Shown: positions 1,662-56,660, counted from the first letter of the whole stretch. The stretch is 63,990 nt of DNA, filler included, from Acidimicrobiia bacterium (GCA_046759765.1; 13 parts of 13 records of this genome joined end to end with filler, not necessarily neighbours in it); one strand, 5' to 3'. Program-made: numbers and translations. The notes: generated by a model from the letters alone, not told the origin.

Positions 1662-2591
1662 TTAGACCGACTCGGCCAGCAAATCCGCCATCAGTCGGGC
1701 GCTGCGTACGCCGTAGTCCGCGTAGCAGTTGTTCATCAAGACGTGAACGGGTCCACCGTCCTCCTGGAGAGCGCGAATCCGAGGTACCCACTCGGAGAGC
1801 TCCTCTCGCGAGTAGTCGTATTGAAAGCGCTCCTCAGCAGTAATACCCCGGGCCTCCCACGTATCTGCGTTTCGCCCGTGGAAGCGAACTTCGGCCACGG
1901 ATCCAGTCGAAGCTGCAACGGCTGGCATCGAACTGCGGAAGCCCTGTGGCCCGTCAACGCTGACATAGTTCAGACCGAGCTCAGAGAGCAGCGCCAGCGA
2001 CCTCTCGCGGTGGTCCTCGTCCATCCAACGTTCTTGGCGAAACTCGACTGCCACGTCGTATTCAGGAACGCGCTGGGCGACCTCATCCAGATAACGCCGT
2101 GAAACAGGTGAGGGATAGAAGTACGGCGGAAACTGGAATAGGACGGTCCCGAGCTTGCCGGCCGAGTGGAGCGGCATCAGCGCCGAGTTGAACCGCTCGA
2201 AAGCTTCCCCCAGCGCGCCGGCCGGAAGGTCTCTCCCGTAGAGGTTCTTCTTGTCGGTCACCTCGTTGGGGAGGCCTTCGCGGAGGTCCTTCCAAAGGGA
2301 CCTGGGCGGCGTGGGATGTTGGGTCAGAAGCCGGAAAGCCTTGATATCAAAGGTGAAGTCTCGTGGCGTGCGTTCGACCCAGGCACCGGCCACCTTCTCT
2401 GAGGGAGGTGCGTAGTAAGTCGAGTCGACCTCGACGATCGGAAACTCCGCGGCATAGAACCGGAGCCGCTCCTCGGCCGACATCCTCTCGGCCGGGTAGA
2501 AGGTGCCTGCTTCGACCAGGGTGCGACCGGTCCATGAACACAGACCGATCAGAACCCCTTCCTTCCGCAGGGCCTCCACCGGTGATGTCAT
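1662..2591 (-). CDS. DUF72 family protein
   Basis: VEVDSTYYAPP, FDIKAFRLLTQHP, LFQFPP, RFHGRN and LMNNCY motifs. Confidence 0.9.
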   Translation of the reverse strand: MTSPVEALRKEGVLIGLCSWTGRTLVEAGTFYPAERMSAEERLRFYAAEFPIVEVDSTYYAPPSEKVAGAWVERTPRDFTFDIKAFRLLTQHPTPPRSLWKDLREGLPNEVTDKKNLYGRDLPAGALGEAFERFNSALMPLHSAGKLGTVLFQFPPYFYPSPVSRRYLDEVAQRVPEYDVAVEFRQERWMDEDHRERSLALLSELGLNYVSVDGPQGFRSSMPAVAASTGSVAEVRFHGRNADTWEARGITAEERFQYDYSREELSEWVPRIRALQEDGGPVHVLMNNCYADYGVRSARLMADLLAESV

Positions 2592-2664
2592 TTGTTTCTT
2601 CTAGCACGACCGAGTCGCGACACACGAGCGGAATCGCCTTGGCTTGCGTAGGATCGCCGACGCG

Positions 2665-3063
2665 ATGGCTCAGCAACAACCCATGGAGATCATCCTGCTC
2701 AGACAGTGGGCCGGCTACGTTGCCACTTCCGTTTACATCACGGACGATGAGGGGGCACTCGTCTATTACAACCAAGAGGCCGCGGACCGTATCGGGGTGC
2801 CATTTGAAGATGTGGGCGAGATACCGGCGGAGAAGCTGGCCGAGCTGTTCGCGACCACCGGCCCGAACGGAGAATCCATCCCCAACGACGAGCTACCGCT
2901 GATGATCGCCCTGACCAAGCGAATCCCGGCCCATAGGTCGATGCAGGTCAAGGTGCTCGACGGATCTTCGCTGCAGGTGGAAGTGACCGCCCTGCCGATC
3001 GTGGCTCAGTCGGGGCGGCTTCTCGGAGGTGTCGTGTTCTCATGGGAGGTAGACGACGAATGA
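2665..3063 (+). CDS. Stand-alone PAS domain protein
   Basis: YITDDEGALVYYNQEA PAS motif and C-terminal EVTALPIVAQSGRLLGGVVF PAC-like strand; ATGA overlap with the next gene. Confidence 0.75.
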   Translation: MAQQQPMEIILLRQWAGYVATSVYITDDEGALVYYNQEAADRIGVPFEDVGEIPAEKLAELFATTGPNGESIPNDELPLMIALTKRIPAHRSMQVKVLDGSSLQVEVTALPIVAQSGRLLGGVVFSWEVDDE

Positions 3064-3893
3064 AGGTCTCGCTTTGGGGGACCCGAGGATCGGTCGGGAG
3101 GGCCGGGCCCGAGACCGTTATCTACGGCGGTGATACGTCCGCGGTCGAAGTGCAGAGCCGGAACGGGGAAGTGCTGATCCTGGATGGCGGTTCGGGCATC
3201 GTCAGACTCGGCGCGGCCCTGAGCGGAACAATGCACAGGGTCGACATCCTGCTCACGCACCTCCACCTCGACCACATCCAGGGCCTGGGGTTCTTCGGGC
3301 CCATGTTCGACCCGAAGTGCGACGTCCACGTGTGGGGACCGGTCTCCTCCCGAATGCACCTTGCCCAACGGCTGACCAAGTACCTCTCGCCGCCGCTGTT
3401 TCCGGTGCGGCTCCGCGAGCTGCCCTCGATCTACCTGCACGATCTCGAGCCCGGCACCTGCTGGATAGGACCCTTCTCGATTAATGCAGATCTCGTCTGT
3501 CATCCCGGCCCGACCCTTGGGTTTCGTATCCAGGAAGGGTCGGACACGGTCGCGTATCTACCCGATCACGAGCCGGCGCTGGGTGTGGCATCGTTTCCGG
3601 AAGGGCCCGAGTGGACCTCGGGGTACGAGCTGGCGCAGGGCGTTGACTTGCTGCTCCACGACTTTCAATACACCGACGACGAGTACACGGACAGAATCGG
3701 ATGGGGCCACAGCAGCTTCCAGCAGGCGCTCGCTTTTGCCGAGCTGGCCGGCGTCGACACGATGGTTACCTACCATCACGATCCGGAGCACTCGGACGCC
3801 ATGCTGCAGGCAGTGCTCATCGAGGTGATGACCCAACGCGAGCTCCCGTTCCGACTCGTCCCGGGTACAGCAGGGACTACGTTCGAGCTCTGA
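3060..3893 (+). CDS. MBL-fold metallohydrolase (putative phosphodiesterase)
   Basis: WGTRGS, YGGDTS, THLHLDHIQG (HxHxDH), GWGHS and YHHDP motifs. Confidence 0.88.
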   Translation: MKVSLWGTRGSVGRAGPETVIYGGDTSAVEVQSRNGEVLILDGGSGIVRLGAALSGTMHRVDILLTHLHLDHIQGLGFFGPMFDPKCDVHVWGPVSSRMHLAQRLTKYLSPPLFPVRLRELPSIYLHDLEPGTCWIGPFSINADLVCHPGPTLGFRIQEGSDTVAYLPDHEPALGVASFPEGPEWTSGYELAQGVDLLLHDFQYTDDEYTDRIGWGHSSFQQALAFAELAGVDTMVTYHHDPEHSDAMLQAVLIEVMTQRELPFRLVPGTAGTTFEL

Positions 3894-5193
3894 CCTCTTC
3901 GATTGCCTCGGTGAGCTCCCGAGACGGATCCTCGACTAGTTGGTGTGCTCCCTCTCGCACGACGATCCGACCGGCAACCACGGTCGTGTGAAGATCGGCC
4001 GCAGCGGCTCCGTAGAGGACGCGACCCAGAACCTGGTCCGAAGCTCCCGCCGTGCGGGGTGAATCGAGTCGGAACGCAGCGAAGTCAGCCGGGGCCCCAG
4101 GGTCGAGACGTCCGGAGCTCCATCCCAGCGAGTCGGCTCCGCCCACCGTGGCGGCCCGGATGAGTTCCTCGAGGTTAAAGGTACCCCGATGGCCGGTGAG
4201 GAGCCGCTCGTGCAGCTCGAGCAATCGAGCTTCCTCGAGAAGGTCGATTCGAGCGTGGCTGTCCGTGCCCACGCACAGTTGGGCGCCGGCGGTGGCTAGG
4301 TCTGAAGACGGTCCGATGCCGTCGGCGAGATCTCGCTCCGTAGTAGGGCAGACGCACACGCGGGCCCGCGCTTGACCCAGCAATCCGATGTCGTCTTCGT
4401 TGGTGTGCGTTGCGTGCAAGGCCGTCGCGGTCGCCTCCCAGACCCCCGAAGCGGCGAGCAGGTGGGTTGGTGTCAGTCCCGTCGCGGCCAGGCATCGCTC
4501 GTTCTCAGCCGGCTGCTCGGAGACGTGGACGTGCAGGGGCTTGCCCGATGCCTTGGCCCAGTCGGCGACCTCAGAGATTGCCTGTTGGTCGACTGCGCGA
4601 ACCGAGTGGATCGCACCGCCGATACGAGCGTGGGGTTGGTCTTCGAAAAGGGCGACTCGCTCCGCCCAAGCAGCAGCAGAGCCGTCGGAAAAGCGTATTT
4701 GCGGTCCTTCCAGCGGCCGGTCGAAATCGCCTCTGAGGTAGCAGGTGTCGAGCAGCGTGATCCGGATGCCGGCGTCGGCGGCGGCTCGCAGAAGGGCCCT
4801 TCCCATCTCATTCGGGTCCGAGTAGGCGGCGCCGCCGGGTTCGCGATGTAGGTAGTGGAACTCGCCGACTGTGGTGATTCCGGCCAGCGCCATCTCCGCG
4901 TACGTAGCCCGGGCCAACGCGTGGTACCTCTCCGGGTCGAGTATGGCGGCCAACCGATACATCTCGTCGCGCCAGGCCCAGAAGTCACGGCCGGATGTGG
5001 CTCCTCGCAGGGCTCGATGGAAGGCATGAGAGTGCGCATTGACCAGGCCCGGGAGGGTGAACCCGTCCAGCAAGGTGGCGTTTGTCGGCCGCTCGGCTCC
5101 TTCTTGGACTCCGATGATGACCCCGCCCTCGGTCTCGATCAGCACGTCCGGGGCTGCGTGTCCCAGCCAGGCAAAGGGGGCAAACCACAACAC
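3877..5193 (-). CDS. hutF: Formimidoylglutamate deiminase
   Basis: NAHSHAFHRALRG, GEFHYLH, HSVRAV, HVSEQPAE, CPTTERDLADG and GTDSH motifs. Confidence 0.92.
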   Translation of the reverse strand: MLWFAPFAWLGHAAPDVLIETEGGVIIGVQEGAERPTNATLLDGFTLPGLVNAHSHAFHRALRGATSGRDFWAWRDEMYRLAAILDPERYHALARATYAEMALAGITTVGEFHYLHREPGGAAYSDPNEMGRALLRAAADAGIRITLLDTCYLRGDFDRPLEGPQIRFSDGSAAAWAERVALFEDQPHARIGGAIHSVRAVDQQAISEVADWAKASGKPLHVHVSEQPAENERCLAATGLTPTHLLAASGVWEATATALHATHTNEDDIGLLGQARARVCVCPTTERDLADGIGPSSDLATAGAQLCVGTDSHARIDLLEEARLLELHERLLTGHRGTFNLEELIRAATVGGADSLGWSSGRLDPGAPADFAAFRLDSPRTAGASDQVLGRVLYGAAAADLHTTVVAGRIVVREGAHQLVEDPSRELTEAIEEVRART

Positions 5194-5213
5194 GTGGTGA
5201 TGATCGCACCTTT

Positions 5214-5233
5214 CGTTCTTGTGTCGTTTGAAG
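5214..5233. repeat. Truncated copy of the 51-bp palindromic repeat at a contig end
   Basis: CGTTCTTGTGTCGTTTGAAG matches the reverse complement of 7767-7817 with 2 mismatches. Confidence 0.65.
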
Positions 5234-5333
5234 NNNNNNNNNNNNNNNNNNNNNNNNNNNNNNNNNNNNNNNNNNNNTTAATTAATTAANNNNNNNNNNN
5301 NNNNNNNNNNNNNNNNNNNNNNNNNNNNNNNNN
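5234..5333. other. Artificial 100-nt contig linker (N44-TTAATTAATTAA-N44); also at 10550, 15698, 20812, 25832, 30834, 35827, 40729, 45557, 50378, 55194 and 59995
   Basis: Identical structure at 12 positions, with stop codons in all six frames. Confidence 0.99.
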
Positions 5334-6363
5334 TTCTCCCCCGCTCGTGGTCGCCTACGCCATAGCGGGGACCGTCGATATCGACCTCACCAACGAGCCG
5401 CTGGGGAAGGACCCGGACGGCAACGAGGTCTTTCTGAGCGACCTATGGCCGACCCAGTCGGAGATCGCCGAGATAGTCGCCTCCTCGATCTCTCGGGAGC
5501 AGTTCATCTCCCAATACGCCACCGTCTTCGACGGAGCAGAGGAGTGGCAGTCAATCGAGACCGCGGGCGAGGCCCTTTATGACTGGGATTCGGACAGCAC
5601 GTACATACAGGAGCCGCCGTTCTTTGCCGACCTCTCCGGTGACCCGAGCCCACTTCAGCCCATTGTCGGTGCCCGGGTGCTCGTCAAGGTCGCCGACTCC
5701 GTCACCACCGACCACATCTCGCCGGCCGGGGCGATTGCGGAGGATTCACCCGCCGGCGAGTACCTGATCTCGCTAGGGGTCGAGCCAGGGATGTTCAATA
5801 GCTACGGGTCGCGGCGCGGCAACGATCGCGTCATGACTCGGGGAACATTCGCCAACATCCGGGTTCGTAATCAGCTGGCGCCCGGAACGGAAGGCGGCTG
5901 GACGACCGACTTCACGGACGACACTGTCAAGACCGTCTACGAAGCGAGCCTGTCCTACCAGGACCAGGGCATCCCTCTGGTCGTTCTGGCGGGCAAGGAC
6001 TACGGCATGGGGAGCAGCCGGGACTGGGCCGCCAAAGGACCCTTCCTTCTCGGTGTGAAGGCCGTGCTGGCCGACAGCCTGGAGCGCATCCACCGTTCCA
6101 ACCTCGTGATGATGGGCGTGCTGCCGCTCACGTTCCCGCCCGGCGAGAGCGCCGAGTCACTGGGCCTCGACGGCACCGAGACCTTCGACATCGAGATAGA
6201 CGACTCGTTGCAGCCCCGCCAGCCGGTACCCGTGACGGCTACGAAAGCCGACGGAACCGTCGTCAGCTTCGACGCCACCTGCCGATGCGACACACCGATC
6301 GAGGTCGAATATCTACGTCACGGCGGAATCCTGCACATGGTCCTGCGGGAGATGGCTGGGTAG
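5334..6363 (+). CDS. acnA: Aconitate hydratase A, C-terminal part (5' truncated)
   Basis: [54 protein letters not shown] and ERIHRSNL motifs. Confidence 0.96.
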
Positions 6364-6408
6364 GAGCTGTCGGCCGTCAGCCGTCAGCTGGCACCTACCC
6401 TGTTCCAA

Positions 6409-6960
6409 GTGAAGGATCCACTGGTTTGGATCGATCTCGAGATGACCGGACTCGATCCGGCCGAGAATGTGATTCTGGAGATCGCCGTCGTTGTCACCGA
6501 CGGCGACCTCGAAGAGGTCATCGAGGGTCCTGATCTAGTCCTGCATGCCACCGAAGACCAGCTGGCGGCCATGGTGCCTGTCGTGGCGGAGATGCACGCC
6601 GAATCGGGTTTGACGAGGGCGGCGGCTTCCTCCGAGCTCACGGCCGAGAGCGCCGAGCAGTCAGTGCTCGCCTTCTTGCGGGAGCATGTGGCCGAACCTG
6701 GGCTGGCCCCGCTGGCGGGCAACAGCGTGCACGTCGACCGGGCGTTCCTCCAAAGACACATGCCGGAGGTCGAGGATTACCTCCACTATCGAAATGTGGA
6801 CGTATCGACACTTAAAGAACTGGTCCGCCGCTGGGATCCCGACGCCCACGACCAGGTGCCTTCCAAGAGCGGCAACCACCGAGCTCTCGCCGACATCAGG
6901 GAGTCAATCGACGAGCTGCGGGCCTACAAGATGCTCTTTGTCCGACGAGATGTCGACTAA
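6409..6960 (+). CDS. orn: Oligoribonuclease
   Basis: WIDLEMTGLD, LAGNSVHVDRAFL, HYRNVDVSTLKEL and HRALADIRESI (DEDDh exonuclease). Confidence 0.96.
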   Translation: MKDPLVWIDLEMTGLDPAENVILEIAVVVTDGDLEEVIEGPDLVLHATEDQLAAMVPVVAEMHAESGLTRAAASSELTAESAEQSVLAFLREHVAEPGLAPLAGNSVHVDRAFLQRHMPEVEDYLHYRNVDVSTLKELVRRWDPDAHDQVPSKSGNHRALADIRESIDELRAYKMLFVRRDVD

Positions 6961-6988
6961 CTTCTTTCCGATCACACAACGGCCAAGG

Positions 6989-7570
6989 ATGAAAACAAGC
7001 CGAGTTTTGCTCTCCGTGGGTGCCGCGATGGCCATAGTCGTGGCGGTCCCGACCGCGGCCATGGCGGGAATTGATCCACCGGGCGCCTGCGATGGCGCCG
7101 CCACCATTGAAGGCGCCGTCTATACGCCGGCTAACGACACGACGGACAATCCCGTTGTAGTGCCGGCCGACAGGGACGGGATAATCATCCCCTATACCGG
7201 CATGGTCATATTCGAGAACAAGGGCCACTCCGGCAAGATCTACCTAGACACGCCCATTACTCAGGTGTTCGGGGAAACCACCGGTCGCATACCTGTGGCC
7301 AGCTGGTCTCATTCCAATGAGGGCGACGAACGGGCAACGACAGGGACCTACAGTCTCGATCAGTTCTGGGAGGACCTGGGGTTCCGGATCACAGGGCTGC
7401 TCAGGATGTCCGGAAAGCACAACGCCAGCGGTGGTAGCTGCTCGGGCTTTGTGTTTGTGAAGTTCACGGGCAACCCCCTCGGGACACCCATCGGCATCGT
7501 CGCTGTCGTCGGCGGCGTGATCACAGGCGCCATAGTCATCTGGGCCGGCGTTCCCAGGAGGGGTCGCTGA
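6989..7570 (+). CDS. Hypothetical exported protein with signal peptide and C-terminal TM anchor
   Basis: MKTSRVLLSVGAAMAIVVAVPTAAMA signal; two Cys; hydrophobic C-terminus followed by PRRGR. Confidence 0.7.
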   Translation: MKTSRVLLSVGAAMAIVVAVPTAAMAGIDPPGACDGAATIEGAVYTPANDTTDNPVVVPADRDGIIIPYTGMVIFENKGHSGKIYLDTPITQVFGETTGRIPVASWSHSNEGDERATTGTYSLDQFWEDLGFRITGLLRMSGKHNASGGSCSGFVFVKFTGNPLGTPIGIVAVVGGVITGAIVIWAGVPRRGR

Positions 7571-7758
7571 TGAGAGGCCACCCCATTGCCGGAGCCGTCG
7601 GGGGCTTCTTCTTTGGAGTATTCCTGGCCTTGATACTCCAACAGTTCGGCCTCCGGTCCCTCAACGACCCGCTCTCTTTTTTCGGACTGCCGATCCTCTT
7701 CCTGACCGTCGGCCTGCTACTGGCCTGGTGGGCCCCCTTCGGCCGCCGCTCCACTTAG
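7570..7758 (+). CDS. Small two-TM membrane protein
   Basis: 62 aa with two hydrophobic segments; TGATG overlap with the upstream gene. Confidence 0.65.
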   Translation: MRGHPIAGAVGGFFFGVFLALILQQFGLRSLNDPLSFFGLPILFLTVGLLLAWWAPFGRRST

Positions 7759-7766
7759 TCACCCCC

Positions 7767-7817
7767 CGTTCTTGTGTCGTTTCACGACCTATATGGTCTT
7801 CAGACGACACAAAAACG
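7767..7817. repeat. 51-bp imperfect palindrome (REP-like)
   Basis: CGTTCTTGTGTCG...ACCTATATGGT...CGACACAAAAACG; same length and core as 28313-28363. Confidence 0.8.
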
Positions 7818-7860
7818 AGGTAACCGAGGCGTTACCCTTCCGACTTCGTAAGGGAGGCCG

Positions 7861-8787
7861 GTGGAGTTTTCGTTGATGACCGAGCCGCAGCAGGGTGGCA
7901 CGTACGAGCAATTGCTGGCGGCCGCGCAGCTGGCGGAGGGGCTGGGGCTCGCTTCATTTGCCCGGTCGGACCATTACTACTCGTTGGACACGCCCGTTCC
8001 GGCCGCCACAGATGCTTTCGCCAGCCTGGGAGGGCTGGCCCGGGACACGAAGAACATCCCACTGTGCGTTCTCGTCACGCCGATAACTTTCCGGCACCCG
8101 GCGGTGATCGCCAAGAGCGCGGCCAGCATCGACGAGATGTCCGGCGGTCGGCTCGAGCTGGGCGTCGGTACGGGTTGGATGGACCGAGAGCATGAGGCTT
8201 ACGGCCTCCCCTTCCCGTCATTGGACGAGCGATTCGAGCGGCTCGAGGAGGCTATCCAGTACCTCATGGCCGCGTTCTCGCCGAAGAAGGCCAGCTTTGC
8301 GGGAAACCACTACACGTTCGACGCGGACGCGCTACCGAAGCCGACTTCGATGCCGTTGATAATCGGTGGCAGCGGCTCCTACCGGACGCCGCGCCTGGCA
8401 GGCACCTATGCCGACGAATACAACCACTTTGTCACACGGCCCGAGGATCTGACACCCAAGCTGGCCCGAGTTCGGAAGGCAGCAGCCGACGCCGGCCGCC
8501 ACCCGGAGACAATCAGGGTGAGCATGATGGGTCCGGTCGTTGTCGGCGCCGACCAGAAGTCCTATCGAGCGGAGCTGGCGCGCCAGGCCGCTAGCTACGG
8601 CATGGATCCGACCGCGTTCGAGCAGCGAATGCCGGATCGTGGCGTACCGTCCGGCACTCCGGACCGAGTTGCAGAGTCGTTGGCGGCTCTGGAAGAGGCG
8701 GGCGTCACTCGTTTTTACGTCCAGCACCTGGAGCTCTGGGACCTAGAGCCTTTGCGTGAAACCTTCGACGTATTGCTTTCGTTCTAG
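7861..8787 (+). CDS. LLM-class (probably F420-dependent) oxidoreductase
   Basis: EPQQGGTYEQLL, RSDHY, FRHPAVIAK, SGGRLELGVGTGW and IIGGSG motifs. Confidence 0.9.
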   Translation: MEFSLMTEPQQGGTYEQLLAAAQLAEGLGLASFARSDHYYSLDTPVPAATDAFASLGGLARDTKNIPLCVLVTPITFRHPAVIAKSAASIDEMSGGRLELGVGTGWMDREHEAYGLPFPSLDERFERLEEAIQYLMAAFSPKKASFAGNHYTFDADALPKPTSMPLIIGGSGSYRTPRLAGTYADEYNHFVTRPEDLTPKLARVRKAAADAGRHPETIRVSMMGPVVVGADQKSYRAELARQAASYGMDPTAFEQRMPDRGVPSGTPDRVAESLAALEEAGVTRFYVQHLELWDLEPLRETFDVLLSF

Positions 8788-10549: not shown

Positions 10550-10649
10550 NNNNNNNNNNNNNNNNNNNNNNNNNNNNNNNNNNNNNNNNNNNNTTAATTA
10601 ATTAANNNNNNNNNNNNNNNNNNNNNNNNNNNNNNNNNNNNNNNNNNNN

Positions 10650-10993
10650 TCGAGTCGGGCGTGGTCCCGCCCGCCGACAGCGGCGGCCCGGAGGACTTCC
10701 AGATACCAGGACTGCGCCAGGATGAAGTTGACGAACCCGGGGCCGGCGATGTCGGCCGACTCGAGATGGGGCACTTCCGGCAGGTTTCCCAACAGGATCT
10801 CGGCCACCCGGCGGGGTGTCCGGTCCGCCCGCCCGGCGAGAGCGAGGGCGACGCTGGTGGCCCAATCGCCGTGATCTCGGTCCCGGGGACGCTTCACCTC
10901 GATGGGAACGTCGTCGACGGCAGGCAGTTCGCCCGCCTCAGCGGCACGCTCCAGGGCCCGGCGAATCGCCGCCACCAGGTCTTCGGGGAACAC
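10650..10993 (-). CDS. argS: Arginine--tRNA ligase, N-terminal domain (truncated)
   Basis: EVKRPRDRDHGDWATSVALALA and IAGPGFVNF motifs; GGAG RBS before the GTG; divergent from tRNA-Arg. Confidence 0.9.
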
Positions 10994-11102
10994 GATGTCT
11001 CCTGCAACGTTGGGCTGGGACGGGCCATGGTAACGACACACGCCAACTGGCCTGAGATGGGCGGCGGGCGGCCTCCTGCGCCCAATTGGCACCTCCCCGC
11101 CT

Positions 11103-11111
11103 TGATACAAT
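11103..11111 (+). promoter_or_regulatory. Extended -10 promoter for tRNA-Arg
   Basis: TGaTACAAT ending 9 nt before the tRNA. Confidence 0.5.
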
Positions 11112-11120
11112 CCGACGCAG

Positions 11121-11193
11121 GCCCTCGTAGCTCAGGGGATCAGAGCACCGGCCTCCGGAGCCGGGTGCGCAGGTTCGAATCCTGCCGGGGGCG
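11121..11193 (+). tRNA. tRNA-Arg(CCG)
   Basis: Cloverleaf: acceptor GCCCTCG/CGGGGGC, D arm TAGCTCAGGGGATCAGAGC, anticodon arm CCGGC-CTCCGGA-GCCGG, T arm GCAGG-TTCGAAT-CCTGC. Confidence 0.95.
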
Positions 11194-11211
11194 CCTTCCC
11201 AACGCCACCAG

Positions 11212-11294
11212 GCCGTCGTAGCTCAGGGGATCAGAGCACCGGGCGGTGCCTGTCCAGGGAGCCGGGTGCGCAGGTTCGAATCCTGCCGGGGGCG
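11212..11294 (+). repeat. Full-length tRNA-Arg-derived copy with the anticodon loop replaced (copy B)
   Basis: Matches the tRNA except for one acceptor-stem change and CCTCCG replaced by GCGGTGCCTGTCCAGG. Confidence 0.9.
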
Positions 11295-11312
11295 CTCCAG
11301 GTCGGCATATCC

Positions 11313-11376
11313 CCGGAGCATGTGAGGCTCAGCCATATGCCTTGGGACCCGAAGCGCTAGTGCATATCGTCGGTTC
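11313..11376. repeat. About 64-bp block repeated at 14528-14592, containing a dif-like arm
   Basis: GAGGCTCAGyCATATGCCTTGGGACCCGAAGCGCTAGyGCATA is shared by both copies. Confidence 0.85.
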
Positions 11377-11565
11377 CCGGACGCTTTCTAGCGACTAGGC
11401 CACGGGCCAGTCGTCGTTCTGCACACCGGTCACCGCGTCGAACCGTAGTCCGGGTCGTGGCGATGCAAAGCCGAGGCGGGATCCGTGTGGGTCCACTGCG
11501 GGGATCGCCGTTGGCGGGTGTCGTCCCACCTTGGGGCTAAGGAAGCGAGCGCGCGTGTCGGACCG

Positions 11566-12552
11566 TTAGTGGTCGACGCGGACGACGAGTTTGCCGGTGG
11601 CGTGGTTGTTTTCCATGTCGGTGTGGGCTTGTTGGATCTGGTCGAGGGTGTACGCGCGGTGGATGGGGACGTTGAGATGGCCGTCTGCGATTGCGCCGAG
11701 GTAGTGCTGGAGGACGGGCTGGGGGAGGTCGGCGCTGTCACCACTGTAGGCGGTGAGTCGTACTCCTGAGGGGATGTAAGCGATGGGGTAGAACTTGTCG
11801 ACGATCCATTGGTTGGACAGCATCCCGGTGAAGCAGACGACGCCATGGACGCGGGTGGCTTGCAGTGTGTCGGGGAGGGTGGGTGTGCCGACGAGTTCGA
11901 GGGCGAGGTCGACGCCGTCGGGGACGATCTTTCGGACTTCGCTGACGATGTCTCCTGAATCCACGATGACGTGATCCACCCCGGCGTTGGTGAGGGCCTG
12001 GGTACGTTCCGGCCTTCGGGTGGTGGAGATGACGATGAGGCCCATGTCCTTGGCGAGACTGGCGGTAGCCATTCCGATTGATGAGGTTCCTCCCCGAATG
12101 AGGAGGGTCTGGCCGGGTTGGGCGTCGAGGCCCTTGGTGAGCGAGCCGTAGGACGTTTGCAGCATCTCGGGCAGCGCTCCAACTATTTCCCAGTCAAGGT
12201 CAGTGTCAATCGGAATGATCTGGGAGGCAGGCACGAGCGTGTATTGGGCGTAGCCGCCGTCGAAGATACGGCCCATGCCGCCCATCATCGCAACAACCTT
12301 CTGACCTGGCGTGAGGTCGGTGCCTGGGGCGGTGTCGACAGTGCCGGCACATTCGATGCCGAGGACGCGGGGGAAGGTGACGCCCTCGGCGAGTCCAAGG
12401 CGGGTGTGGAACTCGGAACGATTGAGTCCGAAGGCTTCGACGCGGATGCGGACCCAACCGTGCCGTTCGGCGGGAACCGGAAGGTCGCGAATGTGGAGGG
12501 CTTCGGGAGGTCCGGGCCCGTCGAGGACAACGGCTTTCATGGTGTCTGTCAC
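11566..12552 (-). CDS. Zinc-binding alcohol dehydrogenase family / quinone oxidoreductase (MDR)
   Basis: AFGLNRSE, PRVLGIEC, DGGYAQYT, IRGGTSSIG and AHTDMENNHATGKLVV motifs. Confidence 0.92.
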   Translation of the reverse strand: MTDTMKAVVLDGPGPPEALHIRDLPVPAERHGWVRIRVEAFGLNRSEFHTRLGLAEGVTFPRVLGIECAGTVDTAPGTDLTPGQKVVAMMGGMGRIFDGGYAQYTLVPASQIIPIDTDLDWEIVGALPEMLQTSYGSLTKGLDAQPGQTLLIRGGTSSIGMATASLAKDMGLIVISTTRRPERTQALTNAGVDHVIVDSGDIVSEVRKIVPDGVDLALELVGTPTLPDTLQATRVHGVVCFTGMLSNQWIVDKFYPIAYIPSGVRLTAYSGDSADLPQPVLQHYLGAIADGHLNVPIHRAYTLDQIQQAHTDMENNHATGKLVVRVDH

Positions 12553-13055
12553 GGTGTGCCTTTCTGTTGGGTCGCGGTGAGGCCGAGTGGGTCGGGGCCG
12601 AGGTCTTCAACGACGGGGCAGTTCATCAAGGTGGAGCTTCTCTTCGAGACCGGCAGGCACTGAAATCAGGCTCCATCGCCCACTCACGAACGCCCACCGA
12701 AGTGACCGTAGTGAACTGGACCTGATTTGGTGGACACCCGATTCCGGCTGATGCCGGAGAAGGGAGGCCCCAAGAGGGTCGTCCATCAAAGCACCCGCCG
12801 GAGTTCCGCTCAGAGGCGGTCGAGTTGGAGCGAACCGCGGAACTTCCTACCGTCCCACTTTCATCGAGAAGAGCCGGCAATCATGCGGGATATGTCGAAG
12901 CGGCCGGCCGCCAAGACCATAACGGCTGCGAGGCGGCGACGCACAGAACGGCTGATCTGGACTGATATAGCCCGAACCGCCCACCCGCACCGAGCGGCAC
13001 CTCTCGAGCGCTGGCAGGGGCAGTGCATTGCTTGAGGTCGGTACCCTTGCGCCGG

Positions 13056-13517
13056 ATGCAGAGTCTGCAGGATCATTACGCTCCCAATAACCGCTGCTTC
13101 GGTTGTGGGCCTGCTAACGACAAGGGTCTTCGGATCAAGAGCTTCCCCGACGGCGACAGTCTGGTGGCACACTTCCGACCCGAGCCGCATCATGTCGCCT
13201 TCGGGCAGGTCCTCAACGGGGGCATCTGCGGAGCCCTGCTCGACTGTAACTCCAACTGGGCCGCCGCCTACCACATGATGCAGCGCGACGGCACCGACCA
13301 GCTACCGAGCACGGTCACTTCCGACTTCCACGTTGTCCTCAAGCGCCCGACGCCAATCGGATCGATAGTCGTTGTGCAGTCTCGGGTCGTTTCGTCGGAT
13401 GGACCGCGGGCGGTCGTTGAGGCGTATCTTGAGGCCGACGGCGAAGTCACCGCGACCTGCAGGGGCACTTTCGTTGTCGTCGAGGAAGGTCACCCCGCCT
13501 ATCACCGGTGGGATTGA
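13056..13517 (+). CDS. PaaI family thioesterase (hotdog fold)
   Basis: CFGCGPANDKGL, LNGGICGALLDC and EGHPAYHRW motifs. Confidence 0.88.
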   Translation: MQSLQDHYAPNNRCFGCGPANDKGLRIKSFPDGDSLVAHFRPEPHHVAFGQVLNGGICGALLDCNSNWAAAYHMMQRDGTDQLPSTVTSDFHVVLKRPTPIGSIVVVQSRVVSSDGPRAVVEAYLEADGEVTATCRGTFVVVEEGHPAYHRWD

Positions 13518-13716
13518 CGCGCATCACACCGTCGCGCCGCAGCGGCGGACCAACCCGTGGGCCAGGGGAGCGCATAGCCGAGCACCTCGGGGACGGCTGC
13601 AGGCTTCGATCCGCGCTACCAAAAGTGGCCCGGCGGCACCGCAGATCGACGGGCGGAGTCAGCTTGTGCTACGAGGTCGCGCCTCGAGCCCCGGTCTCCG
13701 GGCATGCTCGTGTGAC

Positions 13717-13797
13717 GGGATCAGGGCACTGGGCCGTTCGTGTCCAGGGAGCCGGGTGCGCAAGTTCGAATCCTGCCGGGGGCGCCTTCCCAAAGCC
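13717..13797 (+). repeat. tRNA-Arg-derived copy C (5'-truncated, modified loop, followed by the same spacer as the real tRNA)
   Basis: GGGATCAGGGCACTGG-GCCGTTCGTGTCCAGG-GAGCCGGGTGCGCAAGTTCGAATCCTGCCGGGGGCG-CCTTCCCAAAGCC. Confidence 0.85.
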
Positions 13798-13811
13798 GTG
13801 CCAGGTATGAC

Positions 13812-14099
13812 TCAGGCTGCTGGCGAGACGAACTCTATCTGCGCCTCCTCGATGAGCCGAGCAGGATCCGGTGACAGCCGATTCCGCTCCGGCGACTCGT
13901 AGTACCTGCGATCTGCCTCCTCGAAATCCCCCTCGTACGCCACGATCCATACGAAACGATTCGTCTCGGGGTTCGACCAGGCACCGACGATGTCGAAACC
14001 GAACTGTGTCCTTAGGGGCACCACCCCTGCTTTCCACCCGGTAACGAACTCGGTCATCGCTCCCGGGGTAATCCTGTAGTCGCGGAGCTGGTAACGCAC
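13812..14099 (-). CDS. NIPSNAP family protein
   Basis: YQLRDYRITPGAMTEF...FGFDIVGAW...FVWIVAY; AGGAGG RBS before the GTG. Confidence 0.82.
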   Translation of the reverse strand: MRYQLRDYRITPGAMTEFVTGWKAGVVPLRTQFGFDIVGAWSNPETNRFVWIVAYEGDFEEADRRYYESPERNRLSPDPARLIEEAQIEFVSPAA

Positions 14100-14377
14100 T
14101 TTCCGCCTCCTTTCCTGGAGTGGCAGCAGCACACGGGGTGTCGCGTTCCGCTTTCGACCCCGAATTGAAGTCGAGCAGATCTTTTGGTTATGAGCCCACA
14201 ACGCCCTTTTCACGCACCGTCCGAGATCGGAGCCTATCGAGCGGCAGCGCGAAGCCACTGCTGATGGAGGTTTCTCATCCGTCCGGCCACCGATGGGCCC
14301 GACGAAAGCCCGGCGGGCACTGGCGCCGGGTGAGCGGAGCGAAGCTGCGTCCTGCCCCCCAGCGGACCCACCCATGT

Positions 14378-14487
14378 CTGTCCAGGGAGCCGGGTGCGCA
14401 GGTTCGAATCCTGCCGGGGGCGCCTCCCCAACGCCACAAGGCCCTCGTAGGCTCAGGGGATCAGAGCGCCGGGCCGTGCCTGCCCAG
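14378..14487 (+). repeat. tRNA-derived copy D (3' half), 18-nt spacer, and copy E (5' half)
   Basis: CTGTCCAGG-GAGCCGG...GGGGGCG / CCTCCCCAACGCCACAAG / GCCCTCGTAGGCTCAGGGGATCAGAGCGCCGG-GCCGTGCCTGCCCAG. Confidence 0.88.
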
Positions 14488-14527
14488 TTGGTTCCGCGTT
14501 GACAGGGGCCATGACAAGCCCATTTCA

Positions 14528-14592
14528 CCGGAGCGTCTGAGGCTCAGTCATATGCCTTGGGACCCGAAGCGCTAGCGCATAACTGCCGGTTC
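14528..14592. repeat. Second copy of the about 64-bp block; reverse strand reads CGGCAG-TTATGCGCTAG
   Basis: Direct repeat of 11313-11376. Confidence 0.85.
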
Positions 14593-14774
14593 GCGCGCAC
14601 CTTGATCGGGCTCGCGAGGGATTCGGTCGGCGTGATTATGAGCGCGTCACTCGAGCCTGACTGAACGACCTACCTTGGGGGCCAGCGAATCATCAGCATG
14701 GCGGGCTCGCGCTCGGCCGGGTAGAACGTTGGGGATCTGGCCGTCGGCCGCCGGACCCGAAGAAAAACGCGCCA

Positions 14775-15697
14775 TCATGAGGACCAGGTTGGCCAGCTGT
14801 CGGCTGCGGGGTGGTTGCTGAAGTTGACGAGTCCCGAAGCGTCCACGTCGATGAGGTAGATCTCGTGGTTCTGACCGGGGGGCAGGTTCTCGAAAGCGAT
14901 CGTGTCTCCGTCGGGCGACCATGCCGGGATGAAGCCGAAATGGCCGTTGGCGTCTGCCAACCGCATCCGGTCGGAGCCGTCGGCGTCCATTATGAACAGG
15001 CCGTACTCCCGAGTGTCGAACGACCCGGCGAAGAAGGCGATGTGGGTGCCGTCAGGGGACCACGCCGGCCCAGCCTCATCTAAGGGATCGTCGGTGAGAC
15101 GGGTGATGTTTCCGCCGTCGGTGTCCATCACGTAGATGTCGAAGCCGGTTCCCAAGCGGTTTGAAGCGAACGCAAGGTGTTGACCGTCTGGGGACCAGGT
15201 GGCGGCGCCGTCGAAGGCAGGATGGTTGGTCAGGTTGGTCGGTCCGGTGCCGTCAGCATTCATCACGAAAAGGTCAAAGTTTCCGTCTCGATCCGAGATG
15301 AACGAGATGCGTGAGCCATCCAGTGACCATTGGGGGCGGCCCTCGACTGCTGGGGTATTAGTGAGCCGAGTTTGGTCGGTCCCGTCGTCGTTCATCACGT
15401 AGACCTCGGTGTTGCCGTCCCGGGTGGAGATGAAGGCGATGCGTGAGCCGTCCGGAGAGAAGGCCGGCTGACCGTTCCCGTTTGTTTCGGTCAGCTGTTC
15501 GATTTCAGAGCCGTCTGGGTTCATGAGGAAGATTGCCGGGTGGGCCTGGCCCCCTCGCCCTGAGGCGAAAGCGATCCTCCCTTCAGCACCGGAGGTCGTT
15601 ACCGGCCTCGTGGTTTCGGCTTCGGCCGCGGCGGATTGATCAGTGGCGGTTGTGGTTGTGGCGGTTGACCCCGTGGCCGGCGCCCCATTCCCTTGAC
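14775..15697 (-). CDS. TolB-like PD40/WD40 beta-propeller protein (5' truncated)
   Basis: Repeated PAWSPDG..IAF.S.RDGN.EIYVM motifs; the frame stays open to the contig end through a Thr/Ala-rich linker. Confidence 0.88.
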
Positions 15698-15797
15698 NNN
15701 NNNNNNNNNNNNNNNNNNNNNNNNNNNNNNNNNNNNNNNNNTTAATTAATTAANNNNNNNNNNNNNNNNNNNNNNNNNNNNNNNNNNNNNNNNNNNN

Positions 15798-16083
<286 letters not shown>

Positions 16084-16102
16084 TGGAAAAGGAGGCGTAC
16101 GA

Positions 16103-20254
<4,152 letters not shown>

Positions 20255-55451: not shown

Positions 55452-56489
55452 TTAGGTCACTGCTGGTAGGTGTTTGAAGATCTGCCGGGCTCCGTATCGT
55501 TTGAGGCAGCGGATGATCTCTCCGGTGGATCGTCCTTCGGCTCTGCGTCTGGCCACATAGCGGCGGGTTTCGGGGTGGTTGCTCATCCGGGTTAGCACCA
55601 TCCGATACAGAGCGGCGTTGGCGTGTCGGTCGCCTCCCCGGTTCAACCGGTAGCGAACCACCTTCCCTGATGAGGCCGAGATGGGTGCCACCCCGCACAG
55701 ATTCGCCCACGCTCCCTCAGAGCGGATCCGCTGGGGCTTGTCGCCCGCAGTGACCAGCAGACTGGCGGCGTTGTCAGGTCCGATCCCGTGCAACTCCAAC
55801 AGCGAAGGAGCAACCTGGCCTACTAGTTCGGTGAGCATCTGGTCGATCTGTTCTATCTCCTGGTTGAGTGATCGGACACGACGGGCCGGATTCCGGATCA
55901 CCAGATAGGTCGTATACAGGACCGGATCTGCCTATGACCTGGGCCGCAGCGCAGCGGCCTCTTTGACCAGGCCTTTCTTTCAGCGGTCTTTGAACCGGCT
56001 GCGGATCGGTTCCGGAGCTGTGAAGACCAGATGGCGGAGCTGTGTGAGGGACTGGATCCGCTGCTCCCGAGCCGAACGGCGAGCCACCAGCAGCACCCGC
56101 ATCTGCTCCACCGGCCCGTTACGGGCCTTCGGGGTCACTGCCGCTGATCCCGACAAGGCCGCTCGAGCTGCCGCTACCGCATCGGTGGGATCCGACTTGC
56201 CCTGCTTCCGCCGCAACTGACGGCTAGGCCTGTCCACCTCCACCGTCTCCACCTCAGCCTCCAACAGAAACCTGGCTAGACCGACTCCATAGGACCCAGT
56301 TCCCTCCACCCCGACCCGTTCCACCGGTCCAAACGAAGCCAACCATCCCAACAGCTCCTCAAACCCGGTCCCTTCAGCAGTGAACGACTCGACTCCCAAC
56401 AGACCACCGTTCTGATCCACCGCTGCTGCCACCTGAACGTCGGCGTGGGTGTCCACCCCGCCCGTCACACTTACGATTGCCACAGCCAT
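55452..56489 (-). pseudogene. IS110 family transposase with two in-frame stops (TGA 55980-55982, TAG 55932-55934)
   Basis: GVDTHAD, GVEGTGSYG and KSDPTDA (DEDD domain); APISASSG and RLNRGGDRHAN (Tnp domain); both ORF pieces are in the same frame. Confidence 0.9.
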
Positions 56490-56660
56490 CCCTTTCTCTC
56501 GTTTGATGCAAAGGGGTGGCATGCACCACCGGGACGGCGGACGTGACCCAACCCAGCCGCTGGTTTCAGCTCAACCGCTGCTACACCGCCCGACCGGAGC
56601 GTGCCACACCAGCCGTAATCATCGCTCCCAGCCGGATATGGGCCGTCTAGTGATTGTGGA
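56490..56660 (-). ncRNA. IS110 upstream non-coding end (candidate bridge RNA)
   Basis: Lies directly upstream of the transposase, has hairpins, and shares scaffold motifs with 55295-55359; boundary approximate. Confidence 0.5.

Follow-up and report, generated by a model that had tools for sequence, protein, structure and literature searches.

What places pieces of a tRNA gene between unrelated genes, and do such pieces amount to a system for capturing cassettes? This question is raised by a locus of an Acidimicrobiia bacterium (GCA_046759765.1) in which an intact tRNA-Arg(CCG) gene, unit A, is followed on the same strand by four derived units, B to E, interleaved with protein-coding genes. 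The locus lies in the 63,990-nt stretch of DNA analyzed here (hereafter the window), and an initial annotation had proposed that it forms a cassette system built on tRNA-Arg. The repeats described in that annotation are real and lie where it had placed them: ARAGORN and Rfam recovered the intact tRNA-Arg(CCG) and unit B, and a repeat search the derived units (Table 1). The conservation of these units is asymmetric, and two of them break off in one shared 8-nt core. We tentatively read the locus as the remnants of serial site-specific integration at a tRNA hotspot, and not as a dedicated capture system.

A tRNA-Arg gene and its derived units

ARAGORN reported only two tRNA-like genes for the entire window: one, at 11121-11195, was called tRNA-Arg(CCG), and the other, at 11212-11295, "tRNA-Ala(TGC)". 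The former is unit A, the sole canonical tRNA of the window. The latter is unit B, which clears the Rfam tRNA threshold (42.2 versus 29 bits) and lacks the 7-nt anticodon loop and the fully paired acceptor stem of a canonical tRNA; its anticodon loop has 19 nt, versus 9 in the Rfam model, and one acceptor pair is non-canonical. The tRNA-Ala(TGC) label is an ARAGORN misannotation, in which defective tRNA-like debris was called as a gene. Units C, D, and E were not recognized as tRNA by Rfam, even at E values of up to 10.

A single variant type (V) comprises units B, C, D, and E; in this type, the anticodon loop is enlarged by 10 nt that are absent from A. The enlarged loop holds the core, which reads CTGTCCAG in B and D, GTGTCCAG in C, and CTGCCCAG in E. 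The limits first given for A, B, D, and E stood, whereas C, which ends at 13784, reaches 5' to about 13702 and does not start at 13717. Indeed, the left part of C aligns with the 5' half of B at a score reached by 0 of 2000 shuffles, and with the 5' half of A at a score reached by 1 of 5000. The damage to C consists of D-arm indels and a T-stem mismatch. Unit D has no 5' half and E has no 3' half. A decayed 5' half in D was rejected, as the score of its left flank was reached by 1334 of 2000 shuffles against the 5' half of B and by 4665 of 5000 against that of A. A decayed 3' half in E was rejected as well (33 nt past the core, compared with the 3' part of B; 1342/2000), as was an extra 5' remnant beyond the spacer of C (1325/2000).

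The 18-nt spacer joins A to B and D to E and restarts after C, as had been described, in this last case for its first 13 nt only. A second conserved block is present twice, as also described, with a length of 61 nt at 90% identity and not of 64 bp. Taken as a whole, A-spacer-B-block and D-spacer-E-block represent one direct duplication of ~230 nt, broken only where the 3' part of E would be expected. Within it, D-spacer-E (14378-14487) has the order 3' half, short linker, 5' half on one strand, an order that arises trivially wherever two tandem units join.

It should be noted that the locus is confined to one metagenome contig of 5,048 bp (10650-15697). The window contains 12 artificial linkers of the form N44-TTAATTAATTAA-N44 (12 sites versus 0 expected in a motif count; at 5278, 10594, 15742, 20856 ... 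60039), which surfaced in the repeat search as two 100-nt palindromes in which N runs flank TTAATTAATTAA. It is thus a chain of ~5-kb contigs of slowly falling size, from a fragmented draft. The window neighbors of the tRNA-Arg contig are therefore not its genomic neighbors, and readings that span a linker are invalid. The initial annotation had included neither these 12 linkers, nor the truncation of the TolB-like gene by the contig end, nor the ~230-nt direct duplication.

Table 1 Features of the tRNA-Arg contig and its flanking linkers (window coordinates)
Feature	Position	Strand	Remarks
Artificial linker, N44-TTAATTAATTAA-N44	10550..10649	.	Left end of the tRNA-Arg contig
argS 5' part (arginyl-tRNA synthetase N-terminal domain), cut by contig end	10650..10993	-	PF03485, E 1.9e-17
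Unit A, intact tRNA-Arg(CCG)	11121..11193	+	ARAGORN; Rfam tRNA 64.7 bits
18-nt spacer, copy 1, CCTTCCCAACGCCACCAG	11194..11211	+	After A
Unit B, full-length pseudo-tRNA, type V, core CTGTCCAG at 11250-11257	11212..11294	+	Rfam 42.2 bits
61-nt conserved block, copy 1	11306..11366	+	90% identity to copy 2
MDR zinc-type dehydrogenase/quinone oxidoreductase, between B and C	11566..12552	-	ADH_N, ADH_zinc_N, ADH_zinc_N_2
Hotdog-fold (4HBT/PaaI-like) thioesterase, weak match	13023..13517	+	PF13279 (4HBT_2), E 1.2e-4, 23 bits, under the 25.5-bit cut-off
Unit C, full-length V, decayed 5' part (2 indels), core GTGTCCAG at 13740-13747, then 13-nt spacer start	13702..13797	+	
NIPSNAP-family gene, sole gene between C and D	13812..14102	-	PF07978, E 2.4e-8
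Unit D, core CTGTCCAG and 3' part identical to A and B; attR-like	14378..14422	+	
18-nt spacer, copy 2, CCTCCCCAACGCCACAAG	14423..14440	+	After D; 2 mismatches versus copy 1
Unit E, V-type 5' part, stops exactly at core CTGCCCAG (14480-14487); attL-like	14441..14487	+	
61-nt conserved block, copy 2	14521..14581	+	Repeat search, pattern count
TolB-like PD40 beta-propeller, N-terminus cut by contig end	14775..15697	-	PD40, 4 matched stretches; frame open to the linker
Artificial linker	15698..15797	.	Right end of the tRNA-Arg contig

Conservation, breakpoints, and relatives of the genes

The repeat search delimited a four-copy, 69-nt family at 70, 100, 91, and 81% identity, as well as a 5'-part family that takes in E at 92%. 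A 30-mer from the 3' part of the units had four matches in the window (3, 0, 1, and 0 mismatches in A, B, C, and D, respectively) and none in 100 shuffles. A 37-mer from the 61-nt block and a 32-mer from the 5' half (in B and E) each had two matches in the window, versus 0 in shuffles. A chance origin of the repeats is excluded. On the other contigs of the window, the unit and block patterns have no copy.

The 38-nt 3' part starts with GGAGCC and extends one base past the discriminator; A, B, and D share it without a difference, and C has one mismatch. Together with the core, it makes up 46 nt that begin at the anticodon-loop position; these 46 nt are an exact repeat between B and D, and 38 of them are shared with A. 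Over the 125 other positions of the duplicated module, we count 13 differences (~10%), with three mismatches and one indel in the 5' part, one difference in the core, two in the spacer, and six in the block. At that rate, the probability of 0 differences over 38 nt would be ~0.015 according to our arithmetic. This asymmetric identity suggests that the V core was maintained along with the tRNA 3' part next to it, while the 5' parts, the spacer, and the block drifted, a pattern that would be expected of the identity segments of attachment (att) sites.

The breakpoints of D and E meet in the core. The 8-nt CTGYCCAG is both the start of D and the end of E, at the anticodon-loop position, and the two units overlap nowhere else. 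By analogy with tRNA-targeting integrases, this geometry appears to be that of attR-like and attL-like sites. The recombination that the initial annotation had inferred is supported to the extent that the units look like products of a defined site and not of random decay, with a core shared at these breakpoints (CTGTCCAG in D and CTGCCCAG in E) and an identical 38-nt part.

The relatives of the genes provide another line of evidence. The best database relatives of the medium-chain dehydrogenase/reductase (MDR) gene between B and C have 93, 90, 88, and 87% identity. On one flank, the best relatives of the TolB-like gene (341-343 aa) have 69% identity; on the other, the best relative of the ArgS fragment has 63%, with Actinomycetota names among the matches, in a search run in a 'longer' mode in which, according to the tool, a blank is weak evidence. 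Since neither flank has relatives nearly as close as those of the MDR gene, this gene was apparently not inherited with its flanks among sequenced genomes, and this gap in identity fits a horizontal arrival. The closest relative (93%) is named as an Acidobacteria metagenome-assembled genome (MAG), and other close ones as Acidimicrobiia, Kibdelosporangium, and Chloroflexi. These mixed names suggest either a widely exchanged gene or mis-binned MAGs.

At the RNA level, the fold z-scores of the units are unremarkable (-1.12 for B, and +0.65 and +1.41). The 61-nt block was rejected as a structured RNA, with fold z-scores of 0.02 and -0.35 and a hairpin in copy 1 that is missing from the fold of copy 2. 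The block is unmatched in Rfam and in the phage and plasmid collections.

Origin of the array

We give a probability of roughly 0.45 to the reading that the locus holds remnants of serial site-specific integration, that is, of the accretion and decay of mobile DNA at a tRNA-Arg(CCG)/pseudo-tRNA hotspot. Accretion and decay at a tRNA hotspot is an already known kind of structure, of which the locus is on this reading a new instance; sublocations were reportedly treated by Williams in 2002, and accretion by Pavlovic in 2004. In the sequence of events that we envisage, the intact tRNA A would have been followed by a tandem tRNA-Arg copy of the V type, the now defective B. At the 8-bp core CTGYCCAG, located where the V unit has its anticodon loop, DNA would have been recombined by a site-specific recombinase, presumably a tyrosine integrase that the contig lacks. 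An identity segment made of the core, the 38-nt tRNA 3' part, and up to 13-18 nt downstream would have remained after each event. The resulting sites would be attL-like in E (5' part and core) and attR-like in D and on the right side of C. What lies between the sites may be left over from integrated elements that lost the genes for integration and transfer, and would be comparable to cis-mobilizable islands without an integrase. The recombinase as the maker of the junctions, the horizontal arrival of the segments, and the order of the events are what we infer from these data.

Several observations, to which the limit of the ArgS search belongs, weigh against this reading. Units B, C, and E carry 5' parts, and classical tRNA integration copies no 5' halves, so that the V units would have to stem from an ancestral tandem array, or an attP with long tRNA-like arms would be needed. 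The retention of both halves, which the initial annotation had stressed as unlike ordinary att scars, is unusual in part only: it holds for the 5' parts of B, C, and E. A plain segmental duplication would explain the 61-nt block beside B and E equally well, and the core coincides with just two of the five repeat/non-repeat junctions. The segments are tiny (~2.4 kb from B to C, ~0.6 kb from C to D) and their genes are ordinary metabolic ones. A foreign composition of the cargo was not found along the locus, where GC content makes no step; the GC content at third codon positions (GC3) of the four genes is 0.73-0.77, within the range of 25 other window genes (0.786, standard deviation (sd) 0.055), and their codon index is 0.59-0.67, versus 0.676 (sd 0.054) for those 25. 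No integrase, excisionase, or remnant of either was found on the contig. Among its intergenic stop-to-stop open reading frames (ORFs), 0 of 38 matched Pfam at E < 0.05 (two weak matches stand at 0.083 and 0.53), and 0 of 30 matched PHROGs at E <= 0.01. That the contig has no integrase had been pointed out before; this is true, but on a contig of just 5,048 bp the absence carries little or no weight. The linked tyrosine recombinase that had been suggested as a check was looked for on the contig and in 46 large ORFs of the other window contigs, and was found in none of them. Finally, scans of the genome contig collection with a V-specific 30-mer and with a gapped pattern fitting A and B yielded 0 loci each.

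Given the lack of a recombinase, the tiny segments, the 5' halves, and the two of five junctions at the core, plain duplication with decay and chimeric assembly both have to be weighed. In the former case, no mobile element would have been involved. A tandem tRNA-Arg duplicate would have turned into a pseudogene, unequal crossing-over among the tRNA-like repeats would have copied the ~230-nt module (3' part, spacer, V unit, block), gene conversion by the functional tRNA would have kept the 3' parts identical, and the genes would be long resident. Such a course is rather unlikely, although A-spacer-B-block and D-spacer-E-block do align as a single module, and true tandem tRNA-Arg genes exist in Actinomycetota (e.g., Arg(GCG)-Arg(CCG) on a Miltoncostaea replicon). 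It would also suit the 61-nt block without a mobile-element match (Rfam, phage and plasmid collections), the cargo genes without an anomaly in composition or codon usage, and the failure to find recombinase remnants with Pfam and PHROGs. Conversion by A, however, should homogenize the 5' halves too and erase the V core, whereas this core is retained in B, C, D, and E while their 5' parts decay. The coincidence of the D and E breakpoints at one 8-mer also speaks against duplication, as does the closeness of the MDR relatives, which neither flank approaches. The 93% relatives of the MDR gene, without a counterpart for the flanks, could instead point to an assembly artefact, in which versions of a single tRNA-Arg locus from different strains or species were stitched together through exact repeats of 38-46 nt. 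The exact repeats of 46 nt (B and D) and 38 nt (with A), the fragmented draft of ~5-kb contigs, and module copies that are ~10% apart, as orthologues of related strains might be, are all in keeping with this. We nevertheless consider an artefact improbable. A-spacer-B spans 174 nt and D-spacer-E spans 110 nt, about one short read or less, so that half units beside full units occur in real molecules, whatever the long-range order. Moreover, D is non-functional as a tRNA and thus cannot be the 'A' of another strain, and the units are diverged, not collapsed.

The proposal of the initial annotation, a dedicated and integron-like cassette-capture array of tRNA-derived recombination sites on a pseudo-tRNA, is very unlikely to be correct. 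Repeated modules of 3' part, spacer, and 5' part do lie between genes with one core as their boundary, and the identity segment is maintained, but the genes have mixed orientations, their own spacing, and long non-coding gaps of ~190-470 nt, and there are three inter-unit segments only. A recombinase was found neither among the contig genes and intergenic ORFs nor on the other window contigs, and no second such locus was found in the genome contig, phage, and plasmid collections scanned. In addition, the geometry is known from integrative and conjugative elements of actinomycetes (AICEs) and from ssrA islands. A related idea, equally hard to credit, is that the tandem pseudo-tRNA-Arg units would serve as a multi-site docking platform, at which integrase-less gene segments could be inserted, exchanged, and excised at CTGYCCAG. 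With its core in the enlarged loop, such a platform would spare the functional tRNA and might be a tRNA-derived functional analogue of an integron attC array, which we find just as doubtful. Scarcely plausible at all is a role of the V units as functional tRNA-like RNAs (a regulatory or processing element), or of D-spacer-E as a permuted tRNA gene. B is above the Rfam tRNA threshold, and in D-spacer-E a 3' half is followed by a linker and then by a 5' half, as in the permuted tRNA genes of a red alga. Each V copy is damaged differently, however (an acceptor pair and a 19-nt loop in B, indels in C, no 5' half in D, no 3' half in E), Rfam does not detect C, D, and E as tRNA at E values of up to 10, and the fold energies are unremarkable. 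The rejoined halves of D and E would give a non-canonical V type with an enlarged loop, and the host is bacterial.

Should serial integration be the correct reading, the locus would be a further example of tRNA genes gathering and losing foreign DNA, in a poorly sampled lineage of Actinomycetota. Two traits would then stand out: the working tRNA does not hold the recombination core, which is found in a defective tandem copy instead, and very small, integrase-less segments have complete att-like sites as their limits. Were such arrays to vary among strains, they could offer a cheap route to swap single genes at a tRNA-derived site. The locus is also a warning that tRNA finders call such debris as tRNAs, as with B and its tRNA-Ala label.

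Related systems and the genes of the contig

We compared the locus with known systems. In Streptomyces avermitilis, a 44-bp att site lies between two tandem AICEs in one Arg-tRNA gene (PMC2440964), and PYG1 has 44-bp repeats (PMC9897764). The 46-nt segment of our locus agrees with such cases in its length and in its start at the anticodon-loop position. The S. avermitilis elements AICESav3728 and AICESav3708 resemble the locus in their Arg-tRNA target, in direct repeats that extend from the anticodon loop as far as the 3' end (44 bp in S. avermitilis versus 46 nt here), and in the att copy left between successive segments. AICEs, however, are 10-25 kb long, with integrase, excisionase, replication, and transfer genes, whereas the segments here are 0.6-2.4 kb and have none of these. 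The core here is also unlike the anticodon loop that the functional tRNA has, and three units retain a tRNA-like 5' part.

A likeness to AICEs was also seen in the 'plasmid' of Streptomyces sp. NBC_01635 (NZ_CP109278.1, 1-20952, 20.9 kb). It is AICE-like, with genes for FtsK/SpoIIIE and a replication initiator as well as for a site-specific integrase. Both of its ends carry the same tRNA-Arg(CCG) segment, which begins at the anticodon loop and continues for ~30 nt beyond the 3' end. A tRNA-like 5' part in its att arm was considered and rejected (1177/5000 shuffles). This replicon also carries an IS1380 transposase and an AIPR-family gene.

The Dehalococcoides ssrA islands include 15 without an integration module, which were read as possible cis-mobilizable elements, and a conserved motif that is not alignable with ssrA lies just upstream of each repeat (PMC3146451). 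As in our locus, a series of 3'-end direct repeats stands downstream of the gene with cargo in between, and the motif beside the repeats resembles the V-specific core. In contrast, those repeats are 20 bp, the recombinase is of the serine type, variation among strains was shown, and the islands are many kb long. Like the cis-mobilizable elements, the segments here are flanked by att-type direct repeats and are without integration and transfer genes; the contig holds no adjacent element whose recombinase might mobilize them.

Islander places 2083 of 3919 islands in an anticodon-centered class and lists 125 tandem arrays, with a length filter of 2 kb (PMC4383910). In our locus, an intact tRNA stands at one end and displaced 3' fragments lie downstream on the same strand (B, C, and D, with 0-1 mismatches). 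Relative to the 2-kb minimum, the B-C segment is longer (~2.4 kb) and the C-D segment shorter (~0.6 kb). Islander islands each have an integrase, and none was found here among the contig genes and the 38 and 30 intergenic ORFs of the 5,048-bp contig. A partial tRNA copy and its adjacent sequence can be scored as a tRNA by prediction software (PMC9897764). Unit B is likewise miscalled, but it is a full-length unit with an enlarged loop and not a 3' fragment beside foreign DNA.

As in integrons, recombination sites alternate with genes in the locus. Unlike in integrons, there is no intI or attI (no integrase domain was found on the contig or in the 46 ORFs of the other contigs), the sites are tRNA-like and not attC hairpins, and the genes have mixed orientations and long gaps instead of forming compact, co-oriented cassettes. 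Pieces of a tRNA 3' end are also repeated downstream of E. coli tyrT, head-to-tail, over less than 200 bp each and with no genes between them, whereas the copies here are spread over 3.4 kb with four genes.

A Pfam family was found for five of the nine contig ORFs submitted. The MDR, thioesterase, NIPSNAP, and TolB-like calls of the initial annotation were upheld, that of the thioesterase by a weak match under the cut-off. The four genes have the orientations -, +, -, and -, with non-coding gaps of ~190-470 nt. The start codon of argS is probably the GTG at 10993, which follows GGAG. A scan for promoters and terminators found no terminator and a single promoter-like site, which lies within the MDR gene.

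The phage and plasmid collections had no match with the V core or the 61-nt block; their matches were ordinary tRNA-Arg genes, attP matches to the 3' end, and distant MDR and PD40 homologues only. Phages RP3 and VWB each have an annotated attP that matches the 3' part of the units. A match in Miltoncostaea oceani (NZ_CP064357.1) was rejected as a similar pair of units, since its Arg(GCG) and Arg(CCG) genes are normal and part of a true tRNA array. This 816-kb 'plasmid' has 12 tRNA genes within 6 kb (2307-8250), including six tRNA-Arg genes with five anticodons.

Elsewhere in the window, one of the 46 large ORFs of the other contigs encodes an IS110-family transposase (DEDD_Tnp_IS110, 55980-56522, minus strand), with no visible tie to the tRNA locus. 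The contig to the right (15798-20254) opens in the last codons of rpoB, followed by a complete rpoC of 1383 aa (Pfam). The source organism is bacterial, as rpoB and rpoC are separate.

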